Of a stretch of DNA of 54,543 nucleotides, positions 5,538 through 25,061 are shown in pieces. Each line of letters starts with the position of its first letter. Positions within the stretch are counted from its first letter, which is position 1. This DNA comes from an uncultured Flavobacteriales bacterium (GTDB taxonomy: Bacteria; Bacteroidota; Bacteroidia; AKYH767-A; 2013-40CM-41-45): positions 1 through 54,543 of the forward strand of contig CAYHHK010000009.1 of the NCBI GenBank assembly GCA_964356415.1, written 5' to 3'. The notes under the pieces are model-generated. The model searched no databases and was not told where the DNA came from. It was given only the letters and a program-made list of their open reading frames with translations. A program made the translations under genes and the position numbers.

Positions 5538-5761
5538 GTAATGCCGACAGATTATCTCAACTTGACCTGATAATAGGCTTGGTTGAAGAGCAATTCGGAA
5601 AGCAGAATTCTTACGAGATTCTTTTGGAAAGAATTAATGAAGAATTCCCCCAGTACGAATTCACCATGGATGACATGACGGATTTGTTTTACTACAGCAT
5701 GGAAGTGGATGAAATAATTCGCATGAACGCAAACTCAAACATCTACCATGGAGAGCAATAA
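5534..5761 (+). CDS. Hypothetical protein (75 aa)
   Basis: It has an ATGA start/stop overlap with the helicase gene. The sequence is acidic. Confidence 0.6.
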   Translation: MSNADRLSQLDLIIGLVEEQFGKQNSYEILLERINEEFPQYEFTMDDMTDLFYYSMEVDEIIRMNANSNIYHGEQ

Positions 5762-6377
5762 AACACAGATCACCATCATACCTTTTCAAAAGGTAGTTGC
5801 AGCACGCTTAACCGTCACTGATTTTGTACTTCTTAACCTTATTTATGAGAAAAATTATGCCCTGCTGAAAGCGTATGTTGAATATGCCTATGCAGATACC
5901 CAGAGTGCCATTACTGATCTTCAGCAATTGGAACGCGATGGGTGGTGTAAAATCACCGGCAACAGCCCTCTGGAAACTGTACACATTCGCCAACCCTTCA
6001 TCGAATTGATCACTGAGCCTCTGGAAACAGTAAGCTGGATTGAAGCATATCGAAGATTGTTTGGAAAAGCACGTACTGGTTCCATGGGAGATTCCAAGGG
6101 TGTTACGCAGAAGATGCGCAAGTTCATGGCATCAAACCCGCAATATTCGCCGGATGAGATCATGACTGCAGCGCGTCTCTACATTCAGAAATGCAGCATC
6201 GACAATTACAAGTACATGCAACAGGCGGATTATTTTATCTCGAAGGAAGCTTCGGATAATACCACCAAAAGTAATTTGCTTTCGTATTTGGAACAACTCG
6301 ATGTCCATATTTCTGAAGCGGTAAATCCCGGCGATACAGTCACAAGCATTAACTCTTCCGGCGATGGGGCTTTTTGA
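5748..6377 (+). CDS. Hypothetical protein (209 aa)
   Basis: It overlaps both neighbouring genes within the replication block. No motif was recognised. Confidence 0.6.
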   Translation: MESNKTQITIIPFQKVVAARLTVTDFVLLNLIYEKNYALLKAYVEYAYADTQSAITDLQQLERDGWCKITGNSPLETVHIRQPFIELITEPLETVSWIEAYRRLFGKARTGSMGDSKGVTQKMRKFMASNPQYSPDEIMTAARLYIQKCSIDNYKYMQQADYFISKEASDNTTKSNLLSYLEQLDVHISEAVNPGDTVTSINSSGDGAF

Positions 6378-7539
6378 TGAAGTCATAGCCTCGGTGGACA
6401 GGGGCAGATCAGGACTGAATGAAGGACTTTCCCATGGATTACCCAGGCTGGTTCCGTATATCCCCAACATTCAGATGGGGAGTATCAATTTGATTGCGGG
6501 AATGCCGGGTAGCGGGAAGAGTGCGCTGGCCACATCATCTTTTGTCAATGCGCCTTATGAAGATTTCTTGGTAAATAAGTCCGAGACTTACAAGCTGAAG
6601 ATCATCATCTGGTCAATTGAGATTAACAAGGTGATGTTGTTCACCAAACTGATTTGCAGATATTTATTCTACAAGTACCGGATACTGGTGGACATTAACT
6701 ATGTTCTTTCCCGGGGTGAAAACCGAATCTCGCAGGAGATTTACGACAAGGTTATCGAGGCTCACGATTATTTTGAAGCCTTTGAAGATGTTGTCACGGT
6801 TCTTGGCCCGGATAATCCTACGGGAATCCGTAACACACTGCTAAATTACCTGCGTGAAAATGGGCGTGAAGAATACATTGAAGCCCACGTAGCGCGTAAA
6901 GATGCATTTGGTAATGTGATTCTTGTTGATGGAGAGCCGGTAACTGACGTCAGAATGGTTCACGATAAATTTACTCCTACTCATCCCAATCACTACGTCA
7001 TAGCAATGGTTGACCATGTGGGTATTCTCAAACGTGAACGAGGGTTCAATAAAAAGCAATCCATTGACAAGCTTACCGAATACATGGTAGAAATGGCCAA
7101 CATTCACCGGATCATCCCGGTTCTGGTTCAACAGGTGAACCGTAACAATGAAAACTGGGATCGCCAGAAAGCCGGTGGCACCGACATTCAACTCGGAGAC
7201 TTAAAGGAATCCGGGGATACTGTCGATGCTGCTCATAATGTGATTGCGCTCAACTATCCGCAACGCTTTAATTTACACGAATATCGTGGTTATAATCTGG
7301 ATCGTCTTGCTGACAGAGCCAGGTTTTTATCGGTACTGAAAAACCGCGATGGTAATGCCAACATTCAACTTGGTGCAAAATTTCTCGGTGAAATTGGCGC
7401 ATTTACTGAACTGCCAGATGCTTCGCACATGACAGAACAGGTGTATGCACAACTCGCCTCATATCAAAAATACATTGACCTAAACCAAACCATAAATGAT
7501 AACATTACCAACAGTACCAATAGCGCCAACCAGTTGTAA
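6364..7539 (+). CDS. DnaB-like replicative helicase (RecA-type C-terminal domain)
   Basis: Motifs seen are Walker A GMPGSGKSALA, Walker B VIAMVDHVG, and the blocks ESGDTVDAAHNVIAL and LKNRDGNAN, which are typical of DnaB/gp4-type helicases. Confidence 0.85.
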   Translation: MGLFDEVIASVDRGRSGLNEGLSHGLPRLVPYIPNIQMGSINLIAGMPGSGKSALATSSFVNAPYEDFLVNKSETYKLKIIIWSIEINKVMLFTKLICRYLFYKYRILVDINYVLSRGENRISQEIYDKVIEAHDYFEAFEDVVTVLGPDNPTGIRNTLLNYLRENGREEYIEAHVARKDAFGNVILVDGEPVTDVRMVHDKFTPTHPNHYVIAMVDHVGILKRERGFNKKQSIDKLTEYMVEMANIHRIIPVLVQQVNRNNENWDRQKAGGTDIQLGDLKESGDTVDAAHNVIALNYPQRFNLHEYRGYNLDRLADRARFLSVLKNRDGNANIQLGAKFLGEIGAFTELPDASHMTEQVYAQLASYQKYIDLNQTINDNITNSTNSANQL

Positions 7540-8014
7540 CCCAGCCAGGGTGGTGCTTTATTCTCCACCAAAAATGGGGAAAACAACTTTTGCTTCGCAG
7601 CTTGAGAACAATTTGATTCTTGACCTTGAGGATGGTAGCAACTTCGTTACCGCCCTGAAAGTTAAAATCACTTCTCTCGCTGAACTTGATGATACATGCA
7701 GAGCAATTCTCGCCGCCGGTAAACCATATAAGTATGGAACCGTTGATACCATTTCTCGTCTCGAGTTGTGGTGTGAAGGCGAAGCTACGCAGGATTATAT
7801 GAACAGCGGCATTGGCAAAAGTTTCAACAGAGTTAAATCAACAGGAGCGATTCTACCCAGGCACGAGTGGGAATCAGTACTGACTTTGCCAAATGGTGCC
7901 GGCTACTTTTGGCTTCGTAAATCGTTCAAAATGCGGATAGCACGCCTCCAAACTTGTTTCGAACATCTTATCCTCATCGGGCACATGAAGGATAAGACCA
8001 TTGAAAAACAGGGT
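7496..8014 (+). CDS. Sak4/AAA_24-like RecA-family ATPase, exon 1
   Basis: VVLYSPPKMGKTTFA (P-loop), LILDLEDG, GTVDTISRLE and HLILIGHMKDK match the AAA_24 pattern. Past 8014 the frame continues into intron-derived sequence and reaches a stop at 8054-8056. Confidence 0.75.
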
Positions 8015-9001
8015 GAACTTTTTGCCCTTACCTATCTAATTGCTGGAATATCCTAAAGACAATAAACTACAACGTAATTTGAAAAGATCAGCGTGAATGT
8101 TAAAAATTATTGTATGAAACAATGGACAATCAGCAGCCAAGACCCTAAAACGAAAGTAATGGGTAAGGTTCAGAGACTATCTCGTAAGAGAGTACACAAT
8201 TTAAAACTGTGGAAATGGTAGGAGTAACAATAAAAACAGTAAAAATATACACACTTGAGCATCCTATAACACAGGAAATTCGGTATGTAGGTAAAACAAC
8301 ACAGACTTTAAATCGTAGGTGTAACGGGCATATTAGTAAAAGATCAAATGCACACGTTACTTGCTGGGTTAAAAGTTTAAAAAAGCAAAATTTGTTTCCG
8401 AAAATACAATTACTTGATGAAGTAGATTATCAAATCTGGGCTGAAACTGAAAAATATTGGATTTCACAGTTACGCACTTGGGGATTTAATTTATGTAACC
8501 ATAGTGATGGCGGAGAAAGTGGAAGAGAAGGTGTTTCTTTGACTCAAGCACAGAAAGATTATTTATCTGTATTGAATACAGGACGCACCATGTCTGAACA
8601 ATCAAAACTAATTATTGCTCAAAAAGTTAGTGCTGCATGGCGACGTAAGCAACTGGCACAAGTGTTTAAATACCAACAACCAAAAATTGCAAAAGAACAG
8701 TATGTTTTTACACAAGACCATAAAACCAATATTAAAAACAGATTAGTAGGCAGGAAATTACCGCAATCAGTAATTGATAAAATGGTAGAAACTCGCAAAA
8801 AATCTATTCAACAGTGTGATAATAACGGATCTATTATAAAATCTTGGGATTCTGCAAAAACAGCATCTGAAGTTTTAAACATTAATAGTTCGACAATACG
8901 ACATTGTTTACGTGGCAGTAAGAAAACTGCCGGAGGTTTTAAATGGTCTTTTTGTTACTAAGATATAGTCCAGCCCCTTTAGAAATTTTGGGGAACAACT
9001 G
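8015..9001 (+). mobile_element. Group I intron (td-like) interrupting the Sak4-like ATPase gene, carrying a GIY-YIG endonuclease ORF
   Basis: - P1: exon AGGGT (8010-8014) pairs with GCCCT (8024-8028), with a U.G pair at the splice site.
- P10: TTTTT (8019-8023) pairs with exon 2 AAAGA (9002-9006).
- P7: GACTAT (8175-8180) pairs with ATAGTC (8965-8970), as in the T4 td intron.
- P9: hairpin CCCC 8974-8977 / GGGG 8990-8993.
- The terminal G is g9001.
- The junction is in frame and gives ...IEKQG|KEVNAVELDL. Confidence 0.7.
8215..8961 (+). CDS. GIY-YIG homing endonuclease (I-TevI-like), intron-encoded
   Basis: KIYTLEHPITQEIRYVGKTTQTLNRRCNGH is the GIY-YIG core, followed by EKYWISQLRTWGFNLCNHSDGG. 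The C-terminal NUMOD1-like HTH is IIKSWDSAKTASEVLNINSSTIRHCLRGSKKTAGGFKWSF. The ATG is at 8215; the ORF track starts at a GTG at 8209. Confidence 0.85.
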   Translation: MVGVTIKTVKIYTLEHPITQEIRYVGKTTQTLNRRCNGHISKRSNAHVTCWVKSLKKQNLFPKIQLLDEVDYQIWAETEKYWISQLRTWGFNLCNHSDGGESGREGVSLTQAQKDYLSVLNTGRTMSEQSKLIIAQKVSAAWRRKQLAQVFKYQQPKIAKEQYVFTQDHKTNIKNRLVGRKLPQSVIDKMVETRKKSIQQCDNNGSIIKSWDSAKTASEVLNINSSTIRHCLRGSKKTAGGFKWSFCY

Positions 9002-9214
9002 AAAGAAGTGAACGCTGTCGAGTTGGACTTAACCGGCAGACTAAAATCTATCACCTGCGCTGATGCTGATGCTGTCGGATACCTTTACCGGGACAGTGAA
9101 AGTAAACTGCGCATCAATTTTGCCGCCTCTGACAATGTACTTTGCGGAAGCAGGCCGGCACATTTAGCGGGTGCTGATGTCGAGGCCTTATGGTCAAACA
9201 TCTTCATAGATTAA
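9002..9214 (+). CDS. Sak4/AAA_24-like ATPase, exon 2
   Basis: KEVNAVELDLTGRLKSITCADADAVGYLYRDSESKLRINF matches the C-terminal AAA_24 pattern (l.gk....  .D.vg.l). It is in frame with exon 1 once 8015-9001 is removed. The spliced product would be 243 aa. Confidence 0.65.
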   Translation, partial: KEVNAVELDLTGRLKSITCADADAVGYLYRDSESKLRINFAASDNVLCGSRPAHLAGADVEALWSNIFID

Positions 9215-9256
9215 TTTTCAATTCAATTAATTATCAATCCTTTAAATTTTAATAGC

Positions 9257-9655
9257 ATGTCAACAGAAACAACAACAACCCCAGGCGTAGAAAAGAAAAT
9301 GGTTATTTTAAGCGTAGCCGGTCTTCGTAAAGACATCATGGAACTCGGACTTACCCGTGCAGAAATGGCAACCAAATACGATCTCGCCGCGCCTAAAATT
9401 CTTCAGGCACTGAAACAGGCTGGCCTTGACAAGATCAAAGCTGAACCTTTCCGTTTAGTGTTTGACGAAGCCACCGAAGCACCTGCAGTTGTTGCAGTAG
9501 CATCAGCACCGGCCCCAGTAATTGCTGCGGCACCAGCAGTTCGGATTGCATCACCAGCAGTACCGGTGACTGAAACAGCAGTGTTTGACACTGTTGCTGA
9601 TAACCCATGGCCAGTGATTGCTGCACCAGTAGCAGTTGAAGAAGCCATCGTTTAA
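9257..9655 (+). CDS. Hypothetical protein with Ala/Pro/Val-rich C-terminal half
   Basis: The ORF is preceded by an AT-rich spacer. The sequence has a low-complexity APAVVAVASAPAPVIAAAPAV tract. Confidence 0.6.
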   Translation: MSTETTTTPGVEKKMVILSVAGLRKDIMELGLTRAEMATKYDLAAPKILQALKQAGLDKIKAEPFRLVFDEATEAPAVVAVASAPAPVIAAAPAVRIASPAVPVTETAVFDTVADNPWPVIAAPVAVEEAIV

Positions 9656-9711
9656 TCGTCGGCGTTTTCAGTGCTGAAATTTCAATTTTTATTCATTTTT
9701 AAATTCTTATC

Positions 9712-10530
9712 ATGGCAAATGTAAAAGGTAATGTCGGCGAAGCCACAGTAGTAGGCGACAGGAAATTGTTTACCGGAATTGTACCGGTTCAGGTGATGAA
9801 ATTTAATCCTACCAAGGCGGAATTAGTTGCTGACGGGATTGATTTTCAGAACGAGATCGTGTACACCACGGATAAACAACTCGAAGGTGGCCTCGTTGTA
9901 AAGGCTACCCGTTTGGATATCTGGGTTGCAAACCCGAATTACGGGGTAAGCACCAAGATTTCCATCTTCCTGGAAGACAGGGCACGCACAAATAAGGATA
10001 ACACCAAGATGCAGTGGATCAATTCATTTGGTCAATGTACCTGGGGTTCCCTCACTGCCCCTCCTTCAGATCCTACGGTTCTGAAATGGTTCAGCTTGAA
10101 AGATGTTCGTCCTGCCTTCGTTGGCGAGGAAGAACTGATCAAGTTCCTGTCCAAATGGGCCAACGCTTCCCCGAAAGAGGAGTTGTTCCTTGACGCCTTA
10201 CCAGCGTTGATTCGCACCGGTAATGTATCGGAGTTGCGCAGTTTACTCCCGGTGTTCGGTGAGAAAAACCGTGTTCGCGTATTGCTTACCGTTACCCCAC
10301 AGGAAAAAGACGGCGTGACCAAGTATTACCAGAACGTGTTTCCACGCCATTTTGAGCGTTGGAACATCACCAGCAACACCAGTTGGGATAAGCAGTTTGC
10401 CAACCCGCTGGGAGAACCAAAAGGTGTGTGGACACTGGAACTGAAGGAATTCAAGGCTCCGGAAACACACCCTGATGCTGATCCTGCACAGACTGCAATG
10501 GCAGTGAACACTGAAGATGCACCCTGGTAA
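9712..10530 (+). CDS. Candidate single-stranded DNA-binding protein
   Basis: It lies between the Sak4-like ATPase and the primase. The C-terminus is acidic and aromatic (AVNTEDAPW), like the tails of T7 gp2.5 and bacterial SSBs. No direct fold evidence is available. Confidence 0.35.
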   Translation: MANVKGNVGEATVVGDRKLFTGIVPVQVMKFNPTKAELVADGIDFQNEIVYTTDKQLEGGLVVKATRLDIWVANPNYGVSTKISIFLEDRARTNKDNTKMQWINSFGQCTWGSLTAPPSDPTVLKWFSLKDVRPAFVGEEELIKFLSKWANASPKEELFLDALPALIRTGNVSELRSLLPVFGEKNRVRVLLTVTPQEKDGVTKYYQNVFPRHFERWNITSNTSWDKQFANPLGEPKGVWTLELKEFKAPETHPDADPAQTAMAVNTEDAPW

Positions 10531-10544
10531 ATAAACAGTAGCCC

Positions 10545-11549
10545 ATGATTACAGGTCATTTAGGCGTTTCAAAAGAAGATGTTCTTACGCGGGTAAGTGA
10601 GCGAGAGTTATTCTCTGCTTACTGCCCCGGGTTTGAACGCGTTGGTGAGTTTTTCCCCGGTAATTTAAGATCGTCGGATAGTTTAGCCAGTGCACATGTT
10701 GAAATGCTTAGTGGCAAACTTCGTTACAAGGATTTCGGCGATTCGAATAACGGGAGCATGGATATTTGGGCTTATGTAGGTGCAAGATACGGATTGAATT
10801 TCCTGGGAGTAGTTGATAAAATCTCCCAGGATTTCAATCTGAATCATAGTACTGTACCTTACCCGTCTTTACCGACACATTTTACCGGTGAACAGTTGCC
10901 AAAAAAGCAACGAATGATTAAACGTCTGCAAATCAAGCAGCGTCAGTGGCAGCAATGCGACAAAGAATATTGGAGTGACAGGTATTTCATCACCCGCAAT
11001 GAACTTGAATTGTTTAACGTGGCACCAATATCGGATTTCTGGATCGATTACAGGCATATTCGTGCAGAAAAACAATCATACTGCTATAATTACTACTACT
11101 TTGAAAACTACCTGTTAAGAAAAATCTATCAACCCCTGTCGGAAACATACAAATGGTACTCGAATATCAACAGTACTGTTGTTCAGGGAATTGATAACAT
11201 TCCAAAAACACATCCTTTGCTGATCATCACCAAATCAATGAAGGATTTAATCATCCTGCACAAACTTGGCTATCCGGCTATTGCCCCGAACAACGAAATG
11301 GGGTGGATACCGGATGCTGTTTGGGCAAAGTTTCTTCAGCGTTACCCAAAAATGGTAATACTGTTTGATACTGATCCCGCCGGCATTGCCAGTGCGCAGA
11401 AATTTTCACAAATCTACAATCTTCCTTACATCAATATCCCGGCGGCACCCGGGGTAAAAGATATAAGTGATTTTGTTTATCAATCCCGCAGCCTTGGTGA
11501 GACTGCACAATTAATGGAAGGATTATTGCGCGATGTTACAATCCGATGA
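10545..11549 (+). CDS. Toprim-domain DNA primase
   Basis: LLIITKSMKDLIILHKLGYPAIAP...MVILFDTDPAGIASAQKF matches the Toprim pattern (E/K..D...L...G........DxDxAG). Confidence 0.75.
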   Translation: MITGHLGVSKEDVLTRVSERELFSAYCPGFERVGEFFPGNLRSSDSLASAHVEMLSGKLRYKDFGDSNNGSMDIWAYVGARYGLNFLGVVDKISQDFNLNHSTVPYPSLPTHFTGEQLPKKQRMIKRLQIKQRQWQQCDKEYWSDRYFITRNELELFNVAPISDFWIDYRHIRAEKQSYCYNYYYFENYLLRKIYQPLSETYKWYSNINSTVVQGIDNIPKTHPLLIITKSMKDLIILHKLGYPAIAPNNEMGWIPDAVWAKFLQRYPKMVILFDTDPAGIASAQKFSQIYNLPYINIPAAPGVKDISDFVYQSRSLGETAQLMEGLLRDVTIR

Positions 11550-11719
11550 GTATTGCAGGGCCACTGTAACCGTGGTGGCCAATTGCATCAAGCGCAAATG
11601 TGTAGTGTCTGTAATCAAACCTGCAGACCAATCAGCGCAAGATTACATTCAAACACATTTGACAGGCAACGGTTTACGAGTTATTTCTATTTCTAATTTG
11701 ATTACTAAATCTTTGAATA

Positions 11720-12223
11720 ATGAGAACAATCATAATTGTATCAGCGAAAACAGGCGGCAGGTCAACAATCAACAGTGCAGCCTTGAATTGGTCTGAATTA
11801 CAGGCAGATTTAACCGCCGCAGGCATCGAGTTTGCCGGCATGACAGTCTTGGAAAAGGTTAATTACAGTTCACTGGAGCATGGCGAAGCCCGTATTCCTG
11901 AAGGAGAATTCACGCTTTATCTGATGCCAAAGAAAATCAAGGGTGGCAGCTTGATTTCCCTCGAAACCCTGGATGCTATGGTATCCAGCCTGGAGAGTAT
12001 CGTGGAAGATGCCCGTGGCCTCATCTCCGATGGTGATGGGGGTACTGATGAGAATGACGAACCATTGCCTTTCGACGAAGAAGAAGTCTTAACCGACGCC
12101 GGCTTCGATTTCAAGGCACGCGTTCAGATCATCAATGCCCAGTTGGAAGAGTTGCTGATCAACCCTACCAATGACCCTGAAGTTGCAGAAGCACTTGCAA
12201 TTCAGAAAATGATCAACGGATAA
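11720..12223 (+). CDS. Ubiquitin-like (beta-grasp) protein with an internal Gly-Gly at residues 75-76 and a 91-aa acidic C-terminal extension
   Basis: Residues 1-76 are MRTIIIVSAKTGGRSTINSAALNWSELQADLTAAGIEFAGMTVLEKVNYSSLEHGEARIPEGEFTLYLMPKKIKGG. This segment shows a ubiquitin-like strand/helix periodicity and ends in GG at exactly residue 76 (nt 11942-11947). It lies in the same gene block as the JAB and E1-like genes. Confidence 0.55.
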   Translation: MRTIIIVSAKTGGRSTINSAALNWSELQADLTAAGIEFAGMTVLEKVNYSSLEHGEARIPEGEFTLYLMPKKIKGGSLISLETLDAMVSSLESIVEDARGLISDGDGGTDENDEPLPFDEEEVLTDAGFDFKARVQIINAQLEELLINPTNDPEVAEALAIQKMING

Positions 12224-12245
12224 TTCCCGTAGTGTAGTTATTCAG

Positions 12246-12279
12246 ATTCCCGGCAGGTGGCAGCTTGTCGGGAATTTTT
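12246..12279 (+). terminator. Rho-independent terminator
   Basis: ATTCCCGGCA (12246-12255) pairs with TGTCGGGAAT (12266-12275), a 10-bp stem with one G.U pair, followed by TTTT. Confidence 0.6.
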
Positions 12280-12302
12280 ACTCACCTTAAATTTAATTTG
12301 TG

Positions 12303-14429
12303 ATGGAAGCAATGACCCCTGAAGACAGGGCTTTTATTGAAAGCTGGAGAGCAGGGGAGAGTTTACCACCAACCCCCACTGTTTGGCAAGATCCGGTAAC
12401 GCATAGCGAGGCCACTGAACCCGACGTAATTTTACTTGAAAATAATATTGATCCTGTTTCCTTAATCGATGCAGTGCGTCCTTTACAGGATGCTTATAAT
12501 GAAATGTCTTTTCGTACTGCTGTTTCAGCAGCGCGATTGGGTAGAGAATCAGAACGTATAGTAGTGGGAAGCGGTGGTGTAGAGTCTCCTATTGATACTC
12601 GCGAAAGACAGATACAGGAAGATGCTGCTGAATTAGCACGAATTCGTGGTAACATGCTTGACGGTCAAAGTACCCCGCCACCAGGATCAGTTTATCGCCC
12701 ACCGGCAGCACAAGTTGCTGATCCAGTTCAACATCCTTCAAGATTAGCTGCAAGGCGTGCTGAACAATTAGCAAGGAATCGTGAGCGAATTGACATGTCT
12801 CGAGAATTTCAGGAAAGACCGCCACTTGGCCCGACACCCAGTAGGCCAGGAATGAGTGGAGAACCTTTTACAGTAGAAATTCGCGCAAGACAATCAGGAT
12901 TAACAGATCGTTTAGCGCATTCTGGGCATATTGACAATGTTCCAGCGGACACCACATGGCAACCCGCTGTTTTATTTCAAACCCGGGATGACGCCAATGA
13001 TTTCTTTGATGCTTTATCGGCAGTTGTACAAGGTCAAGTGATTGATTTGACTCATGCTACTTTAATTTCGCGACTCACAGAGTACCTAAATTCCCCGGAA
13101 AATGTAACTGTCAGGCGTTTTGCATTGACTGCTGCAGATCGCGCAATGTTGGAAAGAGAAGGTGTTCGCCAATTATGGGATGCAGCAAGAGTTGCAAGAT
13201 TATCCCGGGAACGTACAATTCGCAATACTCCTCCTGTACCGCAAATTGACGACAGATCAATTGTAGTTCATCCAAATGGCAGGATGCAAATGATGTCTGC
13301 TGCTGAACTTGAAGTATTTTTATCACGCCCTGCACTGGCACCTGATGGGTTGGATTTTGTTTACCTTAACGGTATCACTAAAGAGCAACTTACACGCGAT
13401 GAACAGATGGTGGTTGAAGCACTGGGAGAAGTTTATCCTGGTAGGAGTGAGTATAGAAAATCGGGAACATCGCGACAGATTTTATTTCACATTCCTTCTG
13501 TAACTATTACTGATGGTAACGATGATCATGAATTGCTTTTACGCGATCTCTATACTGAAATTCACCTGGAGATGGATACGACAACCGGTAAACTGCTGAA
13601 TTTCAACAATTGTTTTCTGAAGCGCGCAACTTTCTCCTATGCCGAAGCTGTTGCTGATTATTCTTATTCACACGCTGCGAATGGTTCTTTATTATATAGC
13701 GAGGATTTTGGTAGCTTGTGTTTGGGAAATTCCATTATGTCTGCAAAGGCAGTAGAATTAAACAGACGCGTTACCAAAGATAATGTGGAAGCCTTTCTGA
13801 TTTTATTTTACTCTTACTATAGTTGGGAAAGTCTCGAAGGTGGGCCATATAAGCACATGACTGATGTTCAGGCCAGTGTACTGCTTAATGGTCACGCAAC
13901 ACTTAATAATGTTGAAATTCTCAACACCACCAAATCTATAATAAATTCTGAATCAATGATTCCGGGGCTTACTACAGACAAAATTGGTGATATATCGACA
14001 CTTTACATTGACAGTACACATCCCGGATTCCATCAATTACTTATAGACAGCGGCATACCCACCTGTTTTTATGAAGGTTCTACAGGTTCGTATAAAATAC
14101 TGTCAAGAGTCGGTAATGGTAATCCACAAACTTTTCCGGAAGGAAGCACTCTTCTGCGGTTTCGTAACCGAAATATTCGTTTGCATGTTGATTCGTCAGA
14201 TGTAGCAGACACATCTGTTTTAAAGACAGTTGTATATCCTGAACATGCTGATATGGTTGCCTCCAAACTTACACAAATTTTTAATAATCTGCTTTATAAA
14301 CATGTCCCTAATTCGGGATTTGATGCGCAAACAGTTATCAATCAGATTCCTCCAATTCAATTGCCTGTAGGAATTCCGGTACTCAATGTTGCAGAAACAG
14401 TTGAACAGTTCGAACTTCAATTTTCATAA
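12303..14429 (+). CDS. Large hypothetical protein with a candidate E2 (UBC)-like region
   Basis: The ORF encodes about 709 aa. See the domain feature at 13478-13860. It sits directly upstream of the JAB and E1-like genes. Confidence 0.75.
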   Translation: MEAMTPEDRAFIESWRAGESLPPTPTVWQDPVTHSEATEPDVILLENNIDPVSLIDAVRPLQDAYNEMSFRTAVSAARLGRESERIVVGSGGVESPIDTRERQIQEDAAELARIRGNMLDGQSTPPPGSVYRPPAAQVADPVQHPSRLAARRAEQLARNRERIDMSREFQERPPLGPTPSRPGMSGEPFTVEIRARQSGLTDRLAHSGHIDNVPADTTWQPAVLFQTRDDANDFFDALSAVVQGQVIDLTHATLISRLTEYLNSPENVTVRRFALTAADRAMLEREGVRQLWDAARVARLSRERTIRNTPPVPQIDDRSIVVHPNGRMQMMSAAELEVFLSRPALAPDGLDFVYLNGITKEQLTRDEQMVVEALGEVYPGRSEYRKSGTSRQILFHIPSVTITDGNDDHELLLRDLYTEIHLEMDTTTGKLLNFNNCFLKRATFSYAEAVADYSYSHAANGSLLYSEDFGSLCLGNSIMSAKAVELNRRVTKDNVEAFLILFYSYYSWESLEGGPYKHMTDVQASVLLNGHATLNNVEILNTTKSIINSESMIPGLTTDKIGDISTLYIDSTHPGFHQLLIDSGIPTCFYEGSTGSYKILSRVGNGNPQTFPEGSTLLRFRNRNIRLHVDSSDVADTSVLKTVVYPEHADMVASKLTQIFNNLLYKHVPNSGFDAQTVINQIPPIQLPVGIPVLNVAETVEQFELQFS
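13478..13860 (+). other. Candidate E2/UBC-like catalytic region (tentative)
   Basis: A beta-meander-like stretch ILFHIPSVTITDG...LYTEIHLEMDTTTGKLLNF is followed by YSHAANGSLLYSEDFGSLCLGNS. That second block compares with the E2 pattern HPN-x(6-10)-G-x-I-C-L; the Cys codon is at 13719-13721. Next comes VEAFLILFYSYYSWESLEGGPY, comparable to the E2 helix ending in a Pro-containing loop. Confidence 0.3.
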
Positions 14430-14444
14430 CCTTAAACCAAATTT

Positions 14445-15671
14445 ATGTCACATACAAAGCGTTTTTTAGAAGACCACCCGAATGCCAAATCATTTTCAGA
14501 TGTTGGCCACTGGCCCACAGGGTTATTTGATCAGGGGTCTTCACCAGAAGAACCAAGAACATACCCACGGCGCTTATCGGAAGTGCAGATTCCCGGAGTA
14601 CCGGAACTGGTTATATCCCATAAACTACAGGCACAAATCGATTATCTTCATTCCAATGTAGGCACAATGGAATGGTCTGGTATTCTTTTGTACAAAATAT
14701 TCTCCGGCACCCTGGCTGATCCTGCCAACATGAAAATTGTTGCAAAACAACTGTTTCTGATGAACATTGGTAGCAGCACTTACACAGAATTCTTTACCGG
14801 CGTAGGTGTTCTGAAGATGTACGACATGATTCCTGATGCAGAATATTGCAGAATGGGATTGATTCACTCACATCACAACATGGGTGCATTTTTCAGCGGT
14901 ACTGACATCCAGGAACTGCACGACAATTCACCATATCACGCGTTTTATCTTTCGCTTATCGTTGATTTTCAGGGTACTTACAAAGCCCGGATTGCAATCG
15001 AAGCTGAAGCTGCTGAAACAATTAAAATTAAAGATGTGGATTCACAACCTATCCAGGTTGCTCTTGAAACAAAATCAATGGCTTCCGGTAAAGTTCTCGG
15101 AATGATTGATATCAAAGTCATTAATCCGCCTTTGATTGATAATTTGTTCAAGGATCATTACCATAGTGTTGCGAATTTACTCAAGAAACCTGTTGCACCA
15201 ACACGGGTTTTATGGGGTGAGCAGACTATGTTACCTGCTCCGATTATTCCTGTTGCGCCGATAGTTGTGGGAAGTATTCCAATCGGTGTAAGCAAGCGCA
15301 TGGTCAACAAGATGACAGCGCTGTTGTTATCTAAAGGCGATTACCCTACATTACCGGAAGCATTCGCAAAGCATTCCCAGGCCATTGATCGCACTTCAGC
15401 ATCACAGGTTTGTCACGCTTTAAATGATAACTGGAGTTTCGATTTCATAATGCGTTGTTTAACCGATGTCTTTGGACTTCCTTGGGTTGAAAAATTCATA
15501 GATGGTGGCGCATCAACGCCTGATGGTATTGAAATGAATATGATGGTAACTGAACTGCTTCAACAATGTTCGGAGAAAGTTGCCAATCTTCTCAAACCCA
15601 CCAGCGGTAGTGTGCTTTTATCCAAAATGATTAGCGAATTAGACCTCGCTGAATTAGTAACACTCTCATGA
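14445..15671 (+). CDS. JAB/MPN (JAMM) metallopeptidase domain protein
   Basis: The sequence has a perfect JAMM signature, HSHHNMGAFFSGTD (H-x-H-x7-S-x-x-D, nt 14865-14906). The upstream Glu is present in MEWSGILLY. The C-terminal roughly 200 aa are unassigned. Confidence 0.85.
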   Translation: MSHTKRFLEDHPNAKSFSDVGHWPTGLFDQGSSPEEPRTYPRRLSEVQIPGVPELVISHKLQAQIDYLHSNVGTMEWSGILLYKIFSGTLADPANMKIVAKQLFLMNIGSSTYTEFFTGVGVLKMYDMIPDAEYCRMGLIHSHHNMGAFFSGTDIQELHDNSPYHAFYLSLIVDFQGTYKARIAIEAEAAETIKIKDVDSQPIQVALETKSMASGKVLGMIDIKVINPPLIDNLFKDHYHSVANLLKKPVAPTRVLWGEQTMLPAPIIPVAPIVVGSIPIGVSKRMVNKMTALLLSKGDYPTLPEAFAKHSQAIDRTSASQVCHALNDNWSFDFIMRCLTDVFGLPWVEKFIDGGASTPDGIEMNMMVTELLQQCSEKVANLLKPTSGSVLLSKMISELDLAELVTLS

Positions 15672-16396
15672 GCGTAGGTGTTGATGAAGCCCGATTGAGG
15701 TTTAGTAACCTTGATTGGGCACAACACGCCTCGGAGCATGTTGTTACTCTTGGTGGTGCAGGTGGAATCGGATCCTGGTTTGCACTACCCCTGGCACGGA
15801 TTGGTTATCAGGTTAGAATCTTTGATTTTGACAGAATTGATACAACCAATCTGGGTGGCCAGCTTTTTCGCACCACGGATGTCGGCAAATTTAAAGTCGA
15901 TGCCGTGAAAACCAACGTGATGATGTTCACCAGTGCCGGAACTGTGGTTGCTCTTAACCAGCGCATCAATTCCCGACTTGATACCGGTAACATCGTAGCC
16001 AGTTGTTTCGACAACATGGAAGCACGTAAAACTGTATACGAGTCCTGGAAAACGGGCTGGGCAATTCCCTGGTTAAATTTACCGGAAGCACAGCGTAAAG
16101 CAACATTCACACCACTGTTAATAGATGGACGTCTCATGGCAGAACAACTTCAGGTATTCTTTGTAACACCTGAACGCTTGTCGGAATATGAACCATATTT
16201 ATTTGCTGACAGTGATGTTGAAGATATGATCTGTACCAACAAAGCTACTTCGCACTTCGCGATGGGTATTGCTTATCAGATGACCCGGGGATTGAACAAC
16301 CATGTTCATAATCAACATTTGGGACACGATGACCGCGCAGTACCATTTCTGATTGAAGACGAAGGTTTCATGTTTACTCAAACTATTACACGATGA
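15668..16396 (+). CDS. ThiF/MoeB/E1-like adenylyltransferase (ubiquitin-activating-like)
   Basis: VVTLGGAGGIGSWFALPLARIGYQVRIFDFDRIDTTNLGGQLF matches the GxGGxG Rossmann motif plus D.D.v..sNL.RQ. Also present are GKFKVDA, FDNMEARK (DN..tR) and MICTNKATSHF (compare the E1 P-x-C-T motif). It has an ATGA overlap with the JAB gene. Confidence 0.85.
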   Translation: MSVGVDEARLRFSNLDWAQHASEHVVTLGGAGGIGSWFALPLARIGYQVRIFDFDRIDTTNLGGQLFRTTDVGKFKVDAVKTNVMMFTSAGTVVALNQRINSRLDTGNIVASCFDNMEARKTVYESWKTGWAIPWLNLPEAQRKATFTPLLIDGRLMAEQLQVFFVTPERLSEYEPYLFADSDVEDMICTNKATSHFAMGIAYQMTRGLNNHVHNQHLGHDDRAVPFLIEDEGFMFTQTITR

Positions 16397-17301
16397 TTTC
16401 CAGTAGTGTCACACACATAAATAATACACCAGGCAAAGTTGTTACAGTGCAAATGAATCCTACGCTTGATGTTATGTATGCTGGTGAATTATTTCATCCG
16501 AAATGGGGTTCAAACACTATGATGCTGGGGCCAGTACAGGGGCTTATTGTTGATCTTGTTCGTGAATTGCGTTATACTGAGCAGCAAAAAATTCTTATTC
16601 TGGATTTATGCGAAAACATGTCAGTAGTCAACAGATGTGCAGATTATATGACACGTTCAGCAGATGCGGCGAAACGATTCTTAAAGGAATACATTAAGCA
16701 AACGCTGGTATCCTGGATGAAGAATCCAAGTAGTAATTCGTTATCATTTTTGACATCAAATACTAACGAGATTCCAATTTTGACCAATCTAACCATACTT
16801 GAAAATAATCGCAAATTACGCCCATGCCTTCAACATGTACAGCTTCGATTACCAGGTATGTCGGCACAGCACGTAATGGTAAATTATTACACCGCATTTA
16901 CAATTAAAACAACTTTAGTCCCAATGGGTGTTTCGCGTGGTATTCAGGCTTGTTTCATGCTGATGGTCAAAAAAGAGGCTGTTAATCGTGTAAGACTGCG
17001 GCTTTTCTTTGAACAGGCGCAGGATTCAGATGATTTTGTATTGTATGTTGATAAGTTTTTCTTCGAAGAACGGCAAACACAATCCTTGCACGCGTTTTAC
17101 ACTTCAGTTCAACGGGAATGTTTTGATAAAGAAGTTCCTATTGCAGTTGTTGAAAATCTTTACGATCACTTATTTATCAATCCCCTTCAACCAGCGATAG
17201 AATTTCCTTCTGTTGCTGAAGTATCCAGGCACCAGGACACGGTGCTTACAAATCTCAAACGGCAACTACGCTTATCCACTAATGCACACTTAATTGTATA
17301 G
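16393..17301 (+). CDS. Hypothetical protein (302 aa), translationally coupled to the E1-like gene
   Basis: It has an ATGA start/stop overlap with the E1-like gene. No motif was recognised. Confidence 0.7.
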   Translation: MISSSVTHINNTPGKVVTVQMNPTLDVMYAGELFHPKWGSNTMMLGPVQGLIVDLVRELRYTEQQKILILDLCENMSVVNRCADYMTRSADAAKRFLKEYIKQTLVSWMKNPSSNSLSFLTSNTNEIPILTNLTILENNRKLRPCLQHVQLRLPGMSAQHVMVNYYTAFTIKTTLVPMGVSRGIQACFMLMVKKEAVNRVRLRLFFEQAQDSDDFVLYVDKFFFEERQTQSLHAFYTSVQRECFDKEVPIAVVENLYDHLFINPLQPAIEFPSVAEVSRHQDTVLTNLKRQLRLSTNAHLIV

Positions 17302-17303
17302 TT

Positions 17304-18329
17304 ATGACTATAGAAGAATATCGCAAAGTGCCTGCGATTCATTACAGCGCACTATCACAAATGGCAGATGACCCCCGTGGGTTGTTTGCCGAGAGGGAAG
17401 AGAAAGAATATTTCAACCTGGGAAGCCTTGTTGACTGTATGCTTTTCACTCCTGACAGGGTTGACTCGCAGTTTTTCATTCTCGACACTGTAAAGCCATC
17501 AGAGGGCATGGGGAACCTGCTGGATCAGTATCTGCTTATGGGTGGTAGCCAAGATGAGTTATCGAAAGATGTGCTCATAGCAGCCCGCGCAGTGACCGGA
17601 TATCAATCGGGATGGAAAGAAGAGACTGTTGCAACGAAATTCTGGGAAGCCTGCTCAACATACATGGCTTTGCTGATGGCTGCCGGAGATCGCACAGTTA
17701 TTGGTAGCCCAATGAAGGAGAAGGCTGACAGGCTTGTTAACCTGATTCTTACACACGATTTCACCGCTGCAATCTTTGATCCCTTGAGTACCCGGTATAA
17801 AATCTACCCGCAAGAGCCTATTTTCTGGGAAGACGAAATTCAACCCAGGTTCAAGGCGCAGTACAAGCTGGATGCTGTCGGGAAAGTTCCCTGTAAATCA
17901 TTGCCGGATGTCATTGTACACGATCTGAAGTACGATATCATTTTCAATATCGATCTCAAGGTCATTGGACAAAATCCAAAGTACTTCCCGTTCTCACATT
18001 TCATCAAATTCAAGTATTATTTGCAGGATTCTTTCTACCAAAAGGGGCTTGAAGCCTTCGTCAAACGTGAGAATATCACAGCACAACTCGGGTTACCGGC
18101 ATTTTTGGTTGTCAGCGAAGGTTATGCTCCCTACATCTGGAATGTTACAAGCAAATGGCTTGAAACAGGAAGACTTGGCGGCATGGGTACATCCGGTGTT
18201 TACCACAAAGGATACGAAGAACTCATGGCTGAATTCCTGTTCCACGAGAAAACCAACGAATACGGTGCACCTGCAGATTTGCAGATTAACAGTGGTCGTG
18301 TTGCAATTCCTGACGAACTGTTACGATGA
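17304..18329 (+). CDS. PD-(D/E)XK exonuclease (RecE/DUF3799-like)
   Basis: The N-terminal EEYRKVPAIHYSALSQM matches the Y....a.S.S.L pattern. KLDAV...NIDLKV gives D...(D/E)xK. YYLQDSFYQKG gives the QxxxY block. Confidence 0.55.
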   Translation: MTIEEYRKVPAIHYSALSQMADDPRGLFAEREEKEYFNLGSLVDCMLFTPDRVDSQFFILDTVKPSEGMGNLLDQYLLMGGSQDELSKDVLIAARAVTGYQSGWKEETVATKFWEACSTYMALLMAAGDRTVIGSPMKEKADRLVNLILTHDFTAAIFDPLSTRYKIYPQEPIFWEDEIQPRFKAQYKLDAVGKVPCKSLPDVIVHDLKYDIIFNIDLKVIGQNPKYFPFSHFIKFKYYLQDSFYQKGLEAFVKRENITAQLGLPAFLVVSEGYAPYIWNVTSKWLETGRLGGMGTSGVYHKGYEELMAEFLFHEKTNEYGAPADLQINSGRVAIPDELLR

Positions 18330-19105
18330 TAGCACGCCAGCACTACCCGCTACCCGACGGCAAGTTTCTTCTGATGGAAGCGACGAATGCCAGAACTGTT
18401 AAAATCACCACGGACTCTCTGCAAATTGTGGAGACTCCTGGTGATTCCAAGAAGCTTGCAGCACTTGAAATTGCAGACTTTCTCTTTCTTGATACCAAGG
18501 ATGATTCGTCCCAAATCACTTTTAACATCAAGGAAGGACATGCTTTAACCTACTCCACCAAATTTATTACCAAACAGTACGATGGTGTGTACCTGGTTGA
18601 TGCCTGCAAATTTCATAACTGCAACTATTTCATTCTTCCGATGTTAGGACTCACGCGTGAAGAATTTGCGTGGGATCACTACTTCATCAATTCTTTTTTA
18701 GTCGAAAGTTTCAGCGCACAGTTGAATCTTGTAGCCCTTAAATACAGATTCTATAGTTTTAATGGTTACCCCGAACTCGAAAAGCGTTTGTTGGAGAACG
18801 ATAATTTTCTCAAACGTATTGAAACTGACCCGCAAACTGTCACGTTTGTCTTCAAAGTTCCAGAGGAACATGAAACAGATTATGAACTATTGGGTCACAG
18901 CAAATACAGTCAGTTCAGCAAAGATTTTAAAGCTAAAATCATGCGGTTCCACCATTTTAACACCGACGGCGAAATGGATTGCATTTTGAATAAGCATCCG
19001 CGTCTTCAGGCTAAACTTGAACTGGAATTTGGTGTAGCAATTCCGGATCATGTTGAACTGTTTGAAAAAATCGGCGTTAACCAGTATCTTTTATTGGAAG
19101 ACTAA
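18326..19105 (+). CDS. Hypothetical protein (259 aa)
   Basis: It overlaps the exonuclease stop by 4 nt (ATGA) and is followed by a terminator. Confidence 0.7.
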   Translation: MIARQHYPLPDGKFLLMEATNARTVKITTDSLQIVETPGDSKKLAALEIADFLFLDTKDDSSQITFNIKEGHALTYSTKFITKQYDGVYLVDACKFHNCNYFILPMLGLTREEFAWDHYFINSFLVESFSAQLNLVALKYRFYSFNGYPELEKRLLENDNFLKRIETDPQTVTFVFKVPEEHETDYELLGHSKYSQFSKDFKAKIMRFHHFNTDGEMDCILNKHPRLQAKLELEFGVAIPDHVELFEKIGVNQYLLLED

Positions 19106-20634: not shown

Positions 20635-23600
20635 TTAGTTGTTCGATGGTTCTGGTTCAGGATCATCCTTGAGCATATCATCCAACCATTCATACTGACC
20701 CTGGCGATACTGTTTCGACGTAACGGTTTTTGCACGATTCCACATCTTCAATCCCGGGATCAGTGGCCTGGATTTAACCCAAACTCTGTTCTCTCCTTTG
20801 AAGGGGCCACTGTGCATTTTTGTATCACCACCCCAGGCTTTTGTAATAGCGTCAGCTAATGTAGCGATATCATTTACAATTGCAACGGCGGGTATAAAAT
20901 TTTTGTTCAATGACTGCAATTCTTGCGGGTTCGAGTAGAAGAAGACGTCAGTTTGAAGCCTGCTGTAAAGATTCAACATGAAATTCATCGACATAAACAT
21001 CGACGTTTTCTTTTTCTTTTCATCGTCTGGTAACATTTTCAATCCACGCAGTAACAGTACAGCCATGATGTTAATGGCAATCAATCCCATCATTTCGGTC
21101 ATATTCTTTCGCAAGTTGGCAGAATCTACATCCGAGTAACCTGCTTCGTTAAAGTGCGTTTTGCCTGTAAATACACGCAATGCTACTTGTTTCAGCATAA
21201 AGAACGATTCCTGCAACACATTCATGTCAGGTGAAACATCTTCTTTTGCCATCTTTTTTGATACAATTTTAGCAGCATATCCTGCGCCTAATCCTACGAT
21301 GCCTCCAATAACTGTCCCAACTCCCGGCAACATCGCGGTTCCTGCCAGCCCCAACGTCACTGCCAGTGTCCCGGGAGTGTAGCTGCGGTATCTTCCTTTG
21401 CGGGTTAATCCGGTGGTGTGGTAATCCTGCGTTCCACCAAATCGAGTATAGAATCCCATCAATGCCCAAGTACGAAACTGCAGGAATAGTTTACCAAGTA
21501 AATAACGACTTACCCGAGTCCGGGAATTTAATCGGTCATAGTTACCGTGACAAATCTGAATTAATTCATCAACAGCAGTGCCGGCATCCAGTAAAGTTTT
21601 ATTGGTACTATGGTTTTCAATGTCGGCAATGTTCTTTTCTGTGCGGTACTCTTCTTTTAAATGACCGTCTTTGCCCATGGCATCCCACAAACTGATTTCT
21701 CCGCCGTGGCCATCTTCCACTTTCGTGTTGCGAAGGATACAGATCATCAATGGCGCCTGGTTTAAATACTCAGTAGATGACTGCAATTTATACGGTGAAA
21801 TTTTATCTACCACTGGCATGAGTTTTTCTTTGAAACTACTCATTGTACCATCGCCTTTAGTTTTGTCGCTGATTTCGTATTGGGTTTCTTTCAAAATATC
21901 CATACGTTGCATCAAATTTCTGATCTTGATTGCATCATGGCTAAACTGATTTACACCGCCCATGGTTTTCCAGAGAATAGAATAAGCATAGGACATATCC
22001 CGGGTGGTGAAAAGTCTTCCATCAGACGCTTCAGTAAAATTTGAAATCAATCCAAATCCAAAGTTTGAGGCTCCTGATGTGAAATTATACCCCATATTCA
22101 GGAGTTGTACAAATCCAAGTAATCCGGTAACTGCAGCTTGCCCGGAGACACCATATTTCAGTTCATCCAATTGATTGGTAAGTACTTCGAAATTCTTTGC
22201 ATACTCTTCAGCGGTAATCTTTCCTTCACTGCGAGCCTGTTCATTGTCCTCGATGATCTGCTCCAATTCTTCAGCTTTCTTTCTTTCATCCTTGCTGGCC
22301 AGCTTTGTGGATTTAGCAACGGCTTTTTCAAAGGATGCCTTTTCTACTTTATATCCGTAGTAAATTTCCATCCAACTATCAGCACTTGCCAAAACGTGTG
22401 CAATTTTCGAAGACTTTTCGATAGCTTTCCTGTTACCCTGATTTCCTTTGGCTTCATCATCATTGGGATGCGTTGCGTACAGTAAATTTCTGCCAATACG
22501 CATGATCATATCAGTCTCCGCCTTGTGCTTGTAAATAACAGCCATGGATGTAAACCCCTTGATTACTTTGCCAACATCAAAAGACTTGCGCATTGCAATA
22601 TCATTGATGATATCCCTGCGCCAATTCTTTAATGTCTCAGTATCCGGATTTTCTTTTTCGTTGTCAATTCGATACTGAATTGTTTTGTACTCCAGGTAAG
22701 CTTTGATTTCCGGATTGTGATTAGCAATGAACTGGGTTTGCAATTTAAAATCCGCCTTTCCAGTGTAAACATCTTTGTGCTGGTAGCCTTCCGGATCCTT
22801 GTTGTCTTCTTTCATCCCGGCACGTACATTTTCCATCATCGAGGAAAACCCTCCGGAAATTCCACCGTCAATAAACTGCTCTGTCAAGTCTTTGTACATG
22901 AAAGGTAGTGTATTGGCGTGCAGTAAATTTGCTTTTTCCGCAGGCAATACTGATTTTAAATCATACATCAAGTCCATGATGTGGTCATACAACGCGCTTT
23001 GGTGAACATTCTGCCGCATTGCTTTGTATTTCTCGTCATAGAAACCGGTTTCCTTGCCATCAACAGATTTCCTGGCCACGGTGATTGAGTATTCTTTCGT
23101 AGGTACGATAAAAGAATCGTTAGTGGCCGCTGTTTGGGCACCATAAAAGATTCGAGCCTCGATGTACGGAGAGTTTTCATTCAGCCATGTATTGTAGGCC
23201 AGTGCAGATTCTGCTACATTATTATATTTCGCATCGAAGAAAACCTTCATGGCGCCAACACCCTCACGGAATCTTTCGATCTGCTCTTCAGCCTGTTCCA
23301 TGACCTTGGCATATTCCTCATCTCCAAGCGTGTTACGAAGCAAATCGTGATGTGCCTGGATTTCTTCCTGGGAAAACGAGATAGGATTCCCGTCTTTATC
23401 CAGTTCAGAATACAACGACGAATCCATAAACAACTTACGATAATCGAGCATCAGGGAGATTTTCTTAATCTTCTTGAAATACTCCTTATTAATTTTAGCC
23501 TTTTGTGACCGTCGTGTTGCGGGATTGGCATACGTTCTTTCCGCATGATCCAGTTTACTTTCACGTTCATTTTCCCATTCATTGAGCAAGTCATGGTAAT

Positions 23601-25056: not shown

Positions 25057-25061
25057 ACTTA

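Follow-up and report, generated by a model that had tools for sequence, protein, structure and literature searches.

Introduction

Several described systems combine a ubiquitin-like protein (Ubl) with an E1-type activating enzyme and a JAB/JAMM peptidase, and these kinds of component are already well known (PMC1779556; PMC11601596; PMC10557695; 10.1101/2023.09.04.556158). In the operons of Bil (bacterial ISG15-like) anti-phage systems (BilABCD), the genes are ordered Ubl, E2 (conjugating enzyme), JAB, E1, and BilD-type E1s carry an inactive and an active adenylation domain in tandem together with a Cys domain (PMC11601596). In Bub systems (6E/DUF6527), the JAB peptidase cuts a Ubl-E2 fusion right after a conserved Gly, yielding the active Ubl (PMC11601596). 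The type 6d systems of Iyer, Burroughs, and Aravind (2006) consist of a small Ubl with a C-terminal Gly, a helical protein, an E2-like protein, a JAB peptidase, and an E1 (PMC1779556). Here, we describe five genes, referred to as A to E, in the 54,543-nt contig CAYHHK010000009.1 (GenBank assembly GCA_964356415.1, deposited as an uncultured Flavobacteriales bacterium); this whole stretch of DNA was analysed and is called the window. The source of the window is a crAss-like phage, and the sequences of the five genes suggest that crAss-like phages run an undescribed ubiquitin-style pathway of their own. Full-text literature searches on crAss-like phages and Ubl-pathway enzymes returned no description of the module, which comprises the following genes.

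11720-12223, plus strand: gene A, 167 amino acids (aa) from the translation of its open reading frame (ORF), encoding the candidate Ubl
12300-14429, plus strand: gene B, 709 aa, GTG start, encoding a large Cys-bearing partner
14445-15671, plus strand: gene C, 408 aa, encoding a JAMM/JAB metallopeptidase
15668-16396, plus strand: gene D, 242 aa, encoding a minimal E1-like (ThiF-fold) adenylation domain
16393-17301, plus strand: gene E, 302 aa, encoding a fast-evolving partner

A first-pass annotation of the window had proposed five consecutive plus-strand genes here. All five ORFs lie where it had placed them, and each of the motifs that it quoted for A, B, C, and D is present in the window proteins. 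The genes are tightly packed, with 4-nt overlaps at both C/D and D/E; in the latter, the start of E overlaps the stop of D. The next gene begins 2 nt past the end of E.

Comparison with described systems

The module contains the same four kinds of component as Bil, in the same order of Ubl, Cys-bearing partner, JAB/JAMM peptidase, and E1 (PMC11601596), with B occupying the slot held by the E2 in Bil operons. The model of A is structurally nearest to ISG15 and ubiquitin. However, D is a single 242-aa adenylation domain and so does not have the BilD-type architecture, and BilB is recognisable as an E2, whereas B is not. Bil is also a bacterial defence system, whereas the module is phage-borne, lies in a replication block, and has a long post-Gly Ubl tail and a fifth gene.

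The likeness to Bub lies in the proposed JAB cleavage of a Ubl fusion next to a conserved Gly and in the E1, which in Bub is minimal, homodimeric, and ThiF/UBA5-like (PMC11601596). Bub relies on oxyester chemistry, with an E1 and an E2 that lack a catalytic Cys, whereas C189 of D and C474 of B are invariant. In addition, Bub has Ubl-E2 and JAB-E1 fusions and a DUF6527 serine protease, whereas here the components are separate genes; no match to DUF6527 was found among the module proteins.

Like the type 6d/PRTRC systems, which are five-gene sets on mobile elements (plasmids and integrative and conjugative elements), the module combines a stand-alone Ubl, a JAB peptidase, and an E1 with one uncharacterised partner, and the Cys-bearing E2-like protein of those systems also lacks the classical HPN histidine position (PMC1779556). 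Against the NCBIfam PRTRC models, C scored 13 bits for PRTRC_A (cut-off 101.8) and D scored 41.9 bits for PRTRC_ThiF (cut-off 144.75), with no matches for A, B, or E. The module differs from PRTRC in having no ParB and in being carried by a lytic-type crAss-like phage.

Three further systems share parts of the module. Cap2 and Cap3 of the cyclic-oligonucleotide-based anti-phage signalling system (CBASS) also provide an E1-type adenylation domain and a JAB peptidase; however, in Cap2 the E1 is fused to an E2, and what it conjugates is the CD-NTase itself, whereas the module has a separate Ubl and no nucleotide-signalling genes. In phages lambda and T1, TAPI is a phage Ubl in which a conserved Gly is followed by a further domain, and the paired TAPK (JAB plus NlpC/P60) is predicted to cut at that Gly (PMC1779556); this pair lacks an E1, belongs to a tail module rather than a replication module, and is unrelated in sequence. 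The sulfur-carrier systems ThiS-ThiF and MoaD-MoeB likewise pair a beta-grasp protein that ends in Gly with a ThiF-fold adenylating enzyme, which in them has a loop Cys. They differ from the module in that cofactor-pathway genes are not found near it, and in that it has a JAB peptidase, a large Cys protein, and presumably cleavable tails. What is new here is not the component kinds; it is their location in a phage, their fixed place in the replication block, a Ubl that bears a tail or is split from it, an unrecognisable B family, and gene E.

Conservation of the module

The same five-gene run occurs directly after the primase gene in phage crAss001 (gp79-gp75) and in Flavobacterium phage FpV4 (gp53-gp49), where the GenBank labels are, in order, hypothetical, hypothetical, "metalloprotease," "thiamine biosynthesis protein ThiF," and hypothetical. 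Using an alignment of D as the query, we drew 80 loci from IMG/VR; the full synteny set comprised 83 loci, all ORFs of which were searched iteratively for A, B, C, and D. The order A-B-C-D is kept in 78 of the 83 loci, and four of the five exceptions end at a contig boundary. Family members share only ~15-45% identity with the window proteins. This arrangement is far beyond chance, and the five genes are a conserved module of crAss-like phages, which supports the first-pass annotation. The loci belong to phages of gut Bacteroides and of Flavobacterium and to many environmental contigs; within GenBank, strong relatives of D were found only in crAss001-type Bacteroides phages and the FpV4 group.

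Detection of the module depended on the type of search. A DNA-level comparison of the region with GenBank phages gave no match, exact-pattern scans of IMG/VR with window D returned nothing, so that alignment-based queries were required, and A and B as single-sequence queries against a set of 5.8 billion proteins returned only the window's own proteins.

Among 185,579 species genomes, we identified 10 matches. Eight are in a crAss-like context, all on contigs of metagenome-assembled genomes (MAGs) with the same neighbours, and the other two are unrelated, distant E1s. Because the module is nearly restricted to phage contigs, it is unlikely to be a recently captured host defence system, and recent capture of a bacterial defence island was rejected on the basis of these 10 matches. 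PADLOC matched only D, and only partially, to Cap2-type E1-E2 models (8e-10), with no match for A, B, or C. Together with the confinement of the module to crAss-like contigs in the species genomes, this weakens the captured-defence explanation that the first-pass annotation had raised. In a MAG contig assigned to a Bacteroidota genome (Puia sp., L087, DASYBV010000020.1, 373,651 bp), a full crAss-like primase-A-B-C-D-exonuclease block was noted, with the module at ~286-290 kb; it might reflect a crAss-like element that is integrated or episomal, or else an assembly chimera.

Gene A

Protein A is divided by an invariant Gly into two parts.

11720..11947, plus strand: A residues 1-76, predicted beta-grasp domain of the ubiquitin type, with K72-I-K74-G75-G76 at its end (AlphaFold2, Foldseek, and alignment)
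11948..12223, plus strand: A residues 77-167, acidic helical post-Gly tail running through the stop codon (three helices in the AlphaFold2 model)

AlphaFold2, run with a 23-sequence alignment of the window protein and database relatives, predicted a strand-strand-helix-strand-strand order (E2-8, E13-19, H24-33, E41-45, E64-70) followed by tail helices at residues 81-103, 120-145, and 153-166. The predicted local distance difference test score (pLDDT) is 80-86 over residues 1-40 and <50 at the flexible residues 73-78. Foldseek identified ISG15, ubiquitin, SUMO, UBX, TtuB (rank 14), and archaeal ubiquitin as PDB neighbours of the model, with probability 0.95-1.0, a root-mean-square deviation of 2.7-3.4 A over ~77 residues, and E ~1e-2, which is as expected from a 76-residue domain. 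Based on this model, residues 1-76 are predicted to adopt a beta-grasp fold nearest to ISG15, ubiquitin, and SUMO, as the first-pass annotation had supposed. Weak Pfam matches of single members of the A family (DIX, DUF348, ThiS, SAP) were scattered and were discounted as evidence.

Across the A family, the first ~76-95 residues are conserved and end in K-x-K-[S/A/G]-G. The terminal Gly (G76 in the window) is invariant in 72/72 sequences, and the residue that precedes it is Ser in 61 of these, Ala in 6, and Gly in 3. The Gly-Gly ending noted in the first pass is thus present in the window, where residues 69-76 read MPKKIKGG before an acidic stretch, but it is a minority form within the family, in which only the last Gly is fixed. 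Basic residues occur at positions -4 and -2 from the invariant Gly, and K72, K74, G75, and G76 of the window protein match R72, R74, G75, and G76 of ubiquitin in position.

Among 73 unique A sequences, the length after the Gly is 1-5 residues in 9 and 54-217 aa in the rest; no member terminates exactly on the Gly, and the JAMM gene is present in every locus with sequence covering that position. In four loci, the A gene is naturally split 1-5 residues past the invariant Gly.

L049, 4117-5330: HNH homing-endonuclease ORF inserted two residues past the Gly; the tail is its own ORF
L053, 3749-4952: HNH homing-endonuclease ORF inserted two residues past the Gly; the tail is its own ORF
L082, 4341-5270: separate tail ORF, no endonuclease ORF
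L013, 4992-5452: separate tail ORF, no endonuclease ORF

These splits suggest that the A domain and its tail function as separate proteins. Within the window tail, residues 112-127 (12053-12100) read DENDEPLPFDEEEV, an acidic patch around P-L-P-F that recalls the acidic-aromatic tips with which single-stranded-DNA-binding (SSB) proteins bind their partners, albeit only as a resemblance.

That tails can exist as separate genes is also compatible with an explanation that involves neither conjugation nor sulfur, in which C simply processes A, the beta-grasp is a removable chaperone or tag at the N-terminus of the tail protein, as ubiquitin is in ribosomal-protein fusions, and D resembles MccB or PaaA in modifying a peptide C-terminus or another carboxylate. 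PaaA (5e-10) and MccB (1.6e-9) are indeed among the top solved relatives of D, and lambda TAPI/TAPK provides a phage Ubl and JAB without conjugation (PMC1779556). However, the nine A members with 1-5 post-Gly residues have no tail for a chaperone to act on and still keep B, C, and D, and the invariant Gly of A and the invariant Cys residues in D and in B point to acyl transfer. MccB also has an N-terminal peptide-clamp domain, which the 242-aa D lacks. We consider this explanation very improbable.

Gene C

The catalytic motif of C lies in the first half of the protein.

14865-14906, plus strand: motif H141-x-H143-x7-S151-x2-D154 of the C JAMM/JAB domain (residues ~40-200), with E76 upstream

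Window C carries the motif as HSHHNMGAFFSGTD. Across 32 diverse members of the C family, E76, H141, H143, S151, and D154 never vary, so that the JAMM motif reported in the first pass extends to a full catalytic set that is fixed across the family. Pfam Prok-JAB was matched by 26 of the 32 members (best 3e-7), whereas window C alone scored 21.6-22.9 bits, just below the cut-off of 25. The family profile matched CSN5 (2e-4), P. furiosus JAMM1 (1.6e-3), and Rpn11 (4e-3). Based on its catalytic residues, C is predicted to be a complete JAMM peptidase related to isopeptidases. The C-terminal half of the protein lies beyond the assigned JAMM domain. A GNAT "match" of C was dismissed as a His-tag artefact.

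Gene D

Window D contains the motifs GGAGGIGS, DFDRIDTTNLGGQ, DNMEAR, and ICT, and it matched Pfam ThiF with 68.4 bits (cut-off 28.1). Its best solved relative is UBA5, followed by PaaA, MccB, UBA3, ThiF, SAE2, UBA1, and Cap2 (3e-5), and all of these matches cover the Rossmann half only. In an alignment of 74 sequences, residues R11, F12, G30, G32, D53, D55, N61, Q65, K76, D115, N116, R120, and C189 are ≥99% conserved. The N-terminal R-F corresponds to the R-Y arginine finger in MoeB. The following residue is a candidate for the Cys that carries an acyl intermediate in or near the crossover loop of E1-like enzymes.

16232-16234, plus strand: codon of D Cys189, invariant in 74/74 sequences

D retains the residues that serve nucleotide binding and catalysis in E1 enzymes, and its sequence marks it as a minimal adenylation domain of the E1-like type. 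Among NCBIfam models, PRK08644 scored highest (64.7 bits; cut-off 159), and MoeB models gave 24-37 bits against cut-offs of 266-633, so that D misses all ThiF/MoeB equivalog cut-offs. With these scores and with replication genes as neighbours, D was rejected as a ThiF/MoeB orthologue. The "thiamine biosynthesis protein ThiF" label on its GenBank homologues is a fold-level transfer and no evidence of thiamine synthesis. The minimal E1 proposed in the first pass is upheld by these results, and the three grounds for doubt that it listed (A not modelling as a beta-grasp, D grouping with ThiF/MoeB, and no synteny in related phages) all run opposite to what we found.

The ThiF likeness also bears on an alternative in which A, once trimmed by C, is a sulfur carrier: D would adenylate it, and it would become a thiocarboxylate, as ThiS, MoaD, CysO, and TtuB do; B would then use the sulfur on a small molecule, nucleotide, tRNA, or phage DNA, and no protein would be tagged. 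The top NCBIfam matches of D are ThiF models, albeit below cut-off, TtuB is among the Foldseek neighbours of the A model, and operons with JAB, E1, and ThiS/MoaD-like proteins for sulfur assimilation are documented (Iyer 2006, PMC1779556). Moreover, the module lies amid DNA and nucleotide-metabolism genes, and the single invariant Cys of B could hold a persulfide. On the other side, D reaches only 64.7 of the 159 bits of the ThiF cut-off, UBA5 ranks above ThiF among its solved relatives, and no rhodanese domain, cysteine desulfurase, or other sulfur-mobilising gene came up among those ORFs within 223-19105 that PHROGs and Pfam scans covered. Sulfur carriers are also not known to have a long cleavable tail or a Cys partner of 350-700 aa. 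On balance, we regard a sulfur carrier as rather unlikely.

Gene B

The conserved part of B is its C-terminal half.

within 12300..14429, plus strand: B core, residues ~385-709, with the C474 codon at 13719-13721

In an alignment of 40 diverse members of the B family, S457, H458, C474, and G476 are invariant, and R442, Y454, E510, S511, G514, and P516 are near-invariant. H458 and C474 are 16 residues apart; in classical E2s, the His-Cys spacing is ~8 residues, shorter than in B. The window protein carries SHAAN...GSLCLG, including C474, so the "H-x-x-N...GSLCLG" loop of the first-pass annotation is present, but its Asn is not conserved in the family and the invariant positions are the four listed above.

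The family comprises 3,246 clusters at 50% identity. Most relatives are 350-460 aa long, and window B has ~380 additional N-terminal residues that most of them lack; this extension (residues 1-380, 12300-13436) is partly Pro/Arg/Glu-rich. B is likewise long in L022 (687 aa), L026 (639 aa), L014 (609 aa), and L083 (637 aa).

AlphaFold2 modelled residues 380-709 of B with pLDDT 70-83 over the first ~130 residues only. This confident part consists of a beta-meander, a loop bearing the Ser-His pair, the Cys, and two helices, and the family alignment shows a conserved helix just upstream of the beta-meander. In this low-confidence model, the order of elements is compatible with the layout of the ubiquitin-conjugating (UBC) fold. 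B had no match in NCBIfam, and a search of BFVD returned only uncharacterised crAss homologues. C474 probably accepts the Ubl. Because the argument consists of operon position and the invariant His...Cys only, we treat B as a candidate acyl acceptor and not as a demonstrated E2.

Gene E and the A-B hairpin

In 79 of the 80 loci with sequence downstream of D, an ORF of 150-380 aa begins at or close to the D stop (offsets -46 to +11 nt). Eleven of the proteins in this slot are relatives of window E (jackhmmer E 2e-21), and hhalign linked the window-E group to the crAss001 gp75 group with 79% probability (E 1.6e-5, 136 columns), which makes it probable that a single fast-evolving family fills the fifth position. 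E had no Pfam or PDB match, and its proteasome-beta matches at E ~0.8 are noise.

Between A and B, folding identified one further element.

12244..12279, plus strand: terminator-like hairpin of 15 pairs, GC-rich, followed by a T run

The hairpin folds at -25.4 kcal/mol (z = -4.4), and 0 of 200 shuffled sequences fold as well. Of 54 distinct A-B spacers, 40 contain a hairpin of this kind, compared with 0 of 17 primase-A spacers and 0 of 9 spacers between the primase and the 272-aa protein gene upstream of it, so that it marks the A-B junction specifically.

Position in the replication block

The module is bordered by the following genes.

10545-11549: primase, upstream neighbour of the module
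17304-18329: PD-(D/E)XK exonuclease, downstream neighbour of the module

Also encoded 5' of the module are a DNA polymerase in pieces, with HNH insertions, as well as helicases, a DnaB-like helicase, Sak4, and a likely SSB protein. With replication and exonuclease genes on both sides, the module sits within the replication block; in crAss001, the corresponding block is transcribed as middle genes (PMC8375218).

This position bears on the possibility that the module is a counter-defence device against Bil-, Bub-, or CBASS-type Ubl immunity of the host, which might act by stripping host Ubl off phage proteins through C, by titrating host enzymes with a decoy Ubl, or by tagging host defence proteins. 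The component kinds are the same as in Bil and CBASS defence (PMC11601596), the PADLOC match of D is to Cap2-type models (8e-10), and E and the A tail evolve fast, as is typical of conflict genes. However, the position of the module in the replication block is fixed across Bacteroides, Flavobacterium, and environmental phages, which looks like a core rather than an accessory function, and a peptidase alone would suffice to strip host Ubl, leaving the E1 and Ubl superfluous. A counter-defence role therefore appears improbable to us.

Several other features of the window were recorded. The 272-aa protein encoded 5' of the primase (9712-10530) is a homologue of crAss001 gp81 (BLASTP 1e-16) with no match in Pfam or PHROG; it has an acidic tip with an aromatic last residue (...NTEDAPW), resembling the C-terminal tails of SSB proteins. 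A 234-aa DNA polymerase fragment (1276-1980) has an endonuclease ORF on one side (223-1188) and one of the HNH type on the other (1990-2472), and the polymerase gene at 223-2472 looks as though it has been split by homing endonucleases. The minus strand carries two giant ORFs, 1,473 and 5,181 aa long and arranged head to tail, at 20635-40607; by size and position, they bring to mind the genes for the virion RNA polymerase in crAss-like phages.

A related gene set in Xanthomonas phage PhiXhv-15

A three-gene set lies between the DNA ligase and topoisomerase genes of the Xanthomonas jumbo phage PhiXhv-15 (2817-6696 of the locus, L093), which is unrelated to crAss. Its Ubl candidate is 141 aa long and ends in ...AIAKASGG directly before the stop codon, its E1 is related to D (hmmsearch E 1.5e-30), and its large protein of 892 aa contains RIHPHM-(13)-GSLCLGS, with an E2-like HPN...C spacing of 14. 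No JAMM motif or C-profile match was found in the nine annotated ORFs around the E1. A Ubl without an extension and no peptidase found nearby, set against crAss-like phages in which the extension and the peptidase always occur together, fit a peptidase that is needed only where there is an extension, albeit in a single case, and the set may represent another version of the module, one that does without the peptidase. For the 892-aa protein, we identified only five near-identical copies, giving no deeper profile; hhalign aligned it to B at E 0.056 and to E2 at E 0.013 (probability 3%), so that the links are at motif level only, and a Knl1-RWD match (E 0.21) was not significant.

Proposed pathway

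We propose that the module is a phage-encoded system for Ubl processing and activation that is expressed with the replication (middle) genes, a reading to which we give slightly better than even chances. Because a terminator-like hairpin follows A, this substrate would be produced in excess over B-E. The JAMM peptidase C would cut A right after the invariant Gly76, releasing a 76-residue Ubl with a C-terminal Gly and a helical acidic tail; the invariance of the Gly, the natural gene splits beside it, and the precedent of Bub all argue for this site. D, probably as a homodimer, would then adenylate Gly76 with ATP, as its conserved residues suggest, and may subsequently carry the Ubl on Cys189. 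From there, the Ubl would move to Cys474 of B, which would act as an E2-type acceptor or ligase and attach it to phage or host proteins, and C may also reverse this attachment. E may be a lineage-specific accessory, perhaps a specificity factor, although this is a guess. What the analysis itself shows is the modelled fold of A, the sets of catalytic residues in C and D, the invariant positions of B, the synteny, and the hairpin.

Transfer to B is the weakest step of this scheme, and several results, first of all those on the fold of B, weigh against the proposal. The B model is poor overall (mean pLDDT 51), and when it was compared with the PDB by Foldseek, no E2 rose above noise (3e46 at rank 41, probability 0.04). 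Sequence profiles of B had no match in the PDB, the 40 family members had no match to Prok-E2, UQ_con, or any other Pfam family, and hhalign of B against four human E2s gave 0.8% probability. The E2-like character assigned to B in the first pass found no backing in any of these four comparisons. For A, the beta-grasp call depends on a 23-sequence alignment, a pLDDT of ~80, and Foldseek E-values near 1e-2, and sequence profiles of the domain gave nothing significant against the PDB or against ubiquitin. The D family has Gly or Ser in place of the Arg of the N-x-x-R-Q motif of ThiF, MoeB, and UBA5, the window sequence being N-L-G-G-Q. Finally, sets of JAB, E1, and Ubl also serve sulfur transfer (Iyer 2006, PMC1779556).

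A broader version of the proposal is that a large branch of crAss-like phages, including gut Steigviridae-type, Flavobacterium FpV4-type, and many environmental members, runs its own Ubl-conjugation cascade during genome replication, in which the B family, with more than 3,000 sequence clusters, would be a hitherto unrecognised group of Cys-dependent conjugating enzymes, not recognisable as UBC E2s, and the cascade would tag replisome or host proteins. We advance this version tentatively, as it seems to us somewhat more apt to prove wrong than right.

Implications

Bacterial Ubl-E1-E2-JAB sets have recently been shown to be anti-phage, and here the same logic appears on the phage side. The module has a fixed place in the replication block of phages related to viruses that rank among the most abundant in the human gut, and its genes have long been annotated there as "thiamine biosynthesis protein" or "metalloprotease"; whether it serves conjugation or sulfur transfer, a misleading annotation in hundreds of genomes would be replaced. 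If A is a sulfur carrier, the module would point to an unknown modification made during phage replication. If it conjugates A to proteins, it would represent a new layer of phage control over the phage's own or host proteins, with B as a new enzyme family, and it would offer a tractable model, as crAss001 and FpV4 are cultured. Should the complete cascade hold, it would be the first complete Ubl conjugation system in a virus of bacteria and would bring with it a new class of E2-like enzyme.

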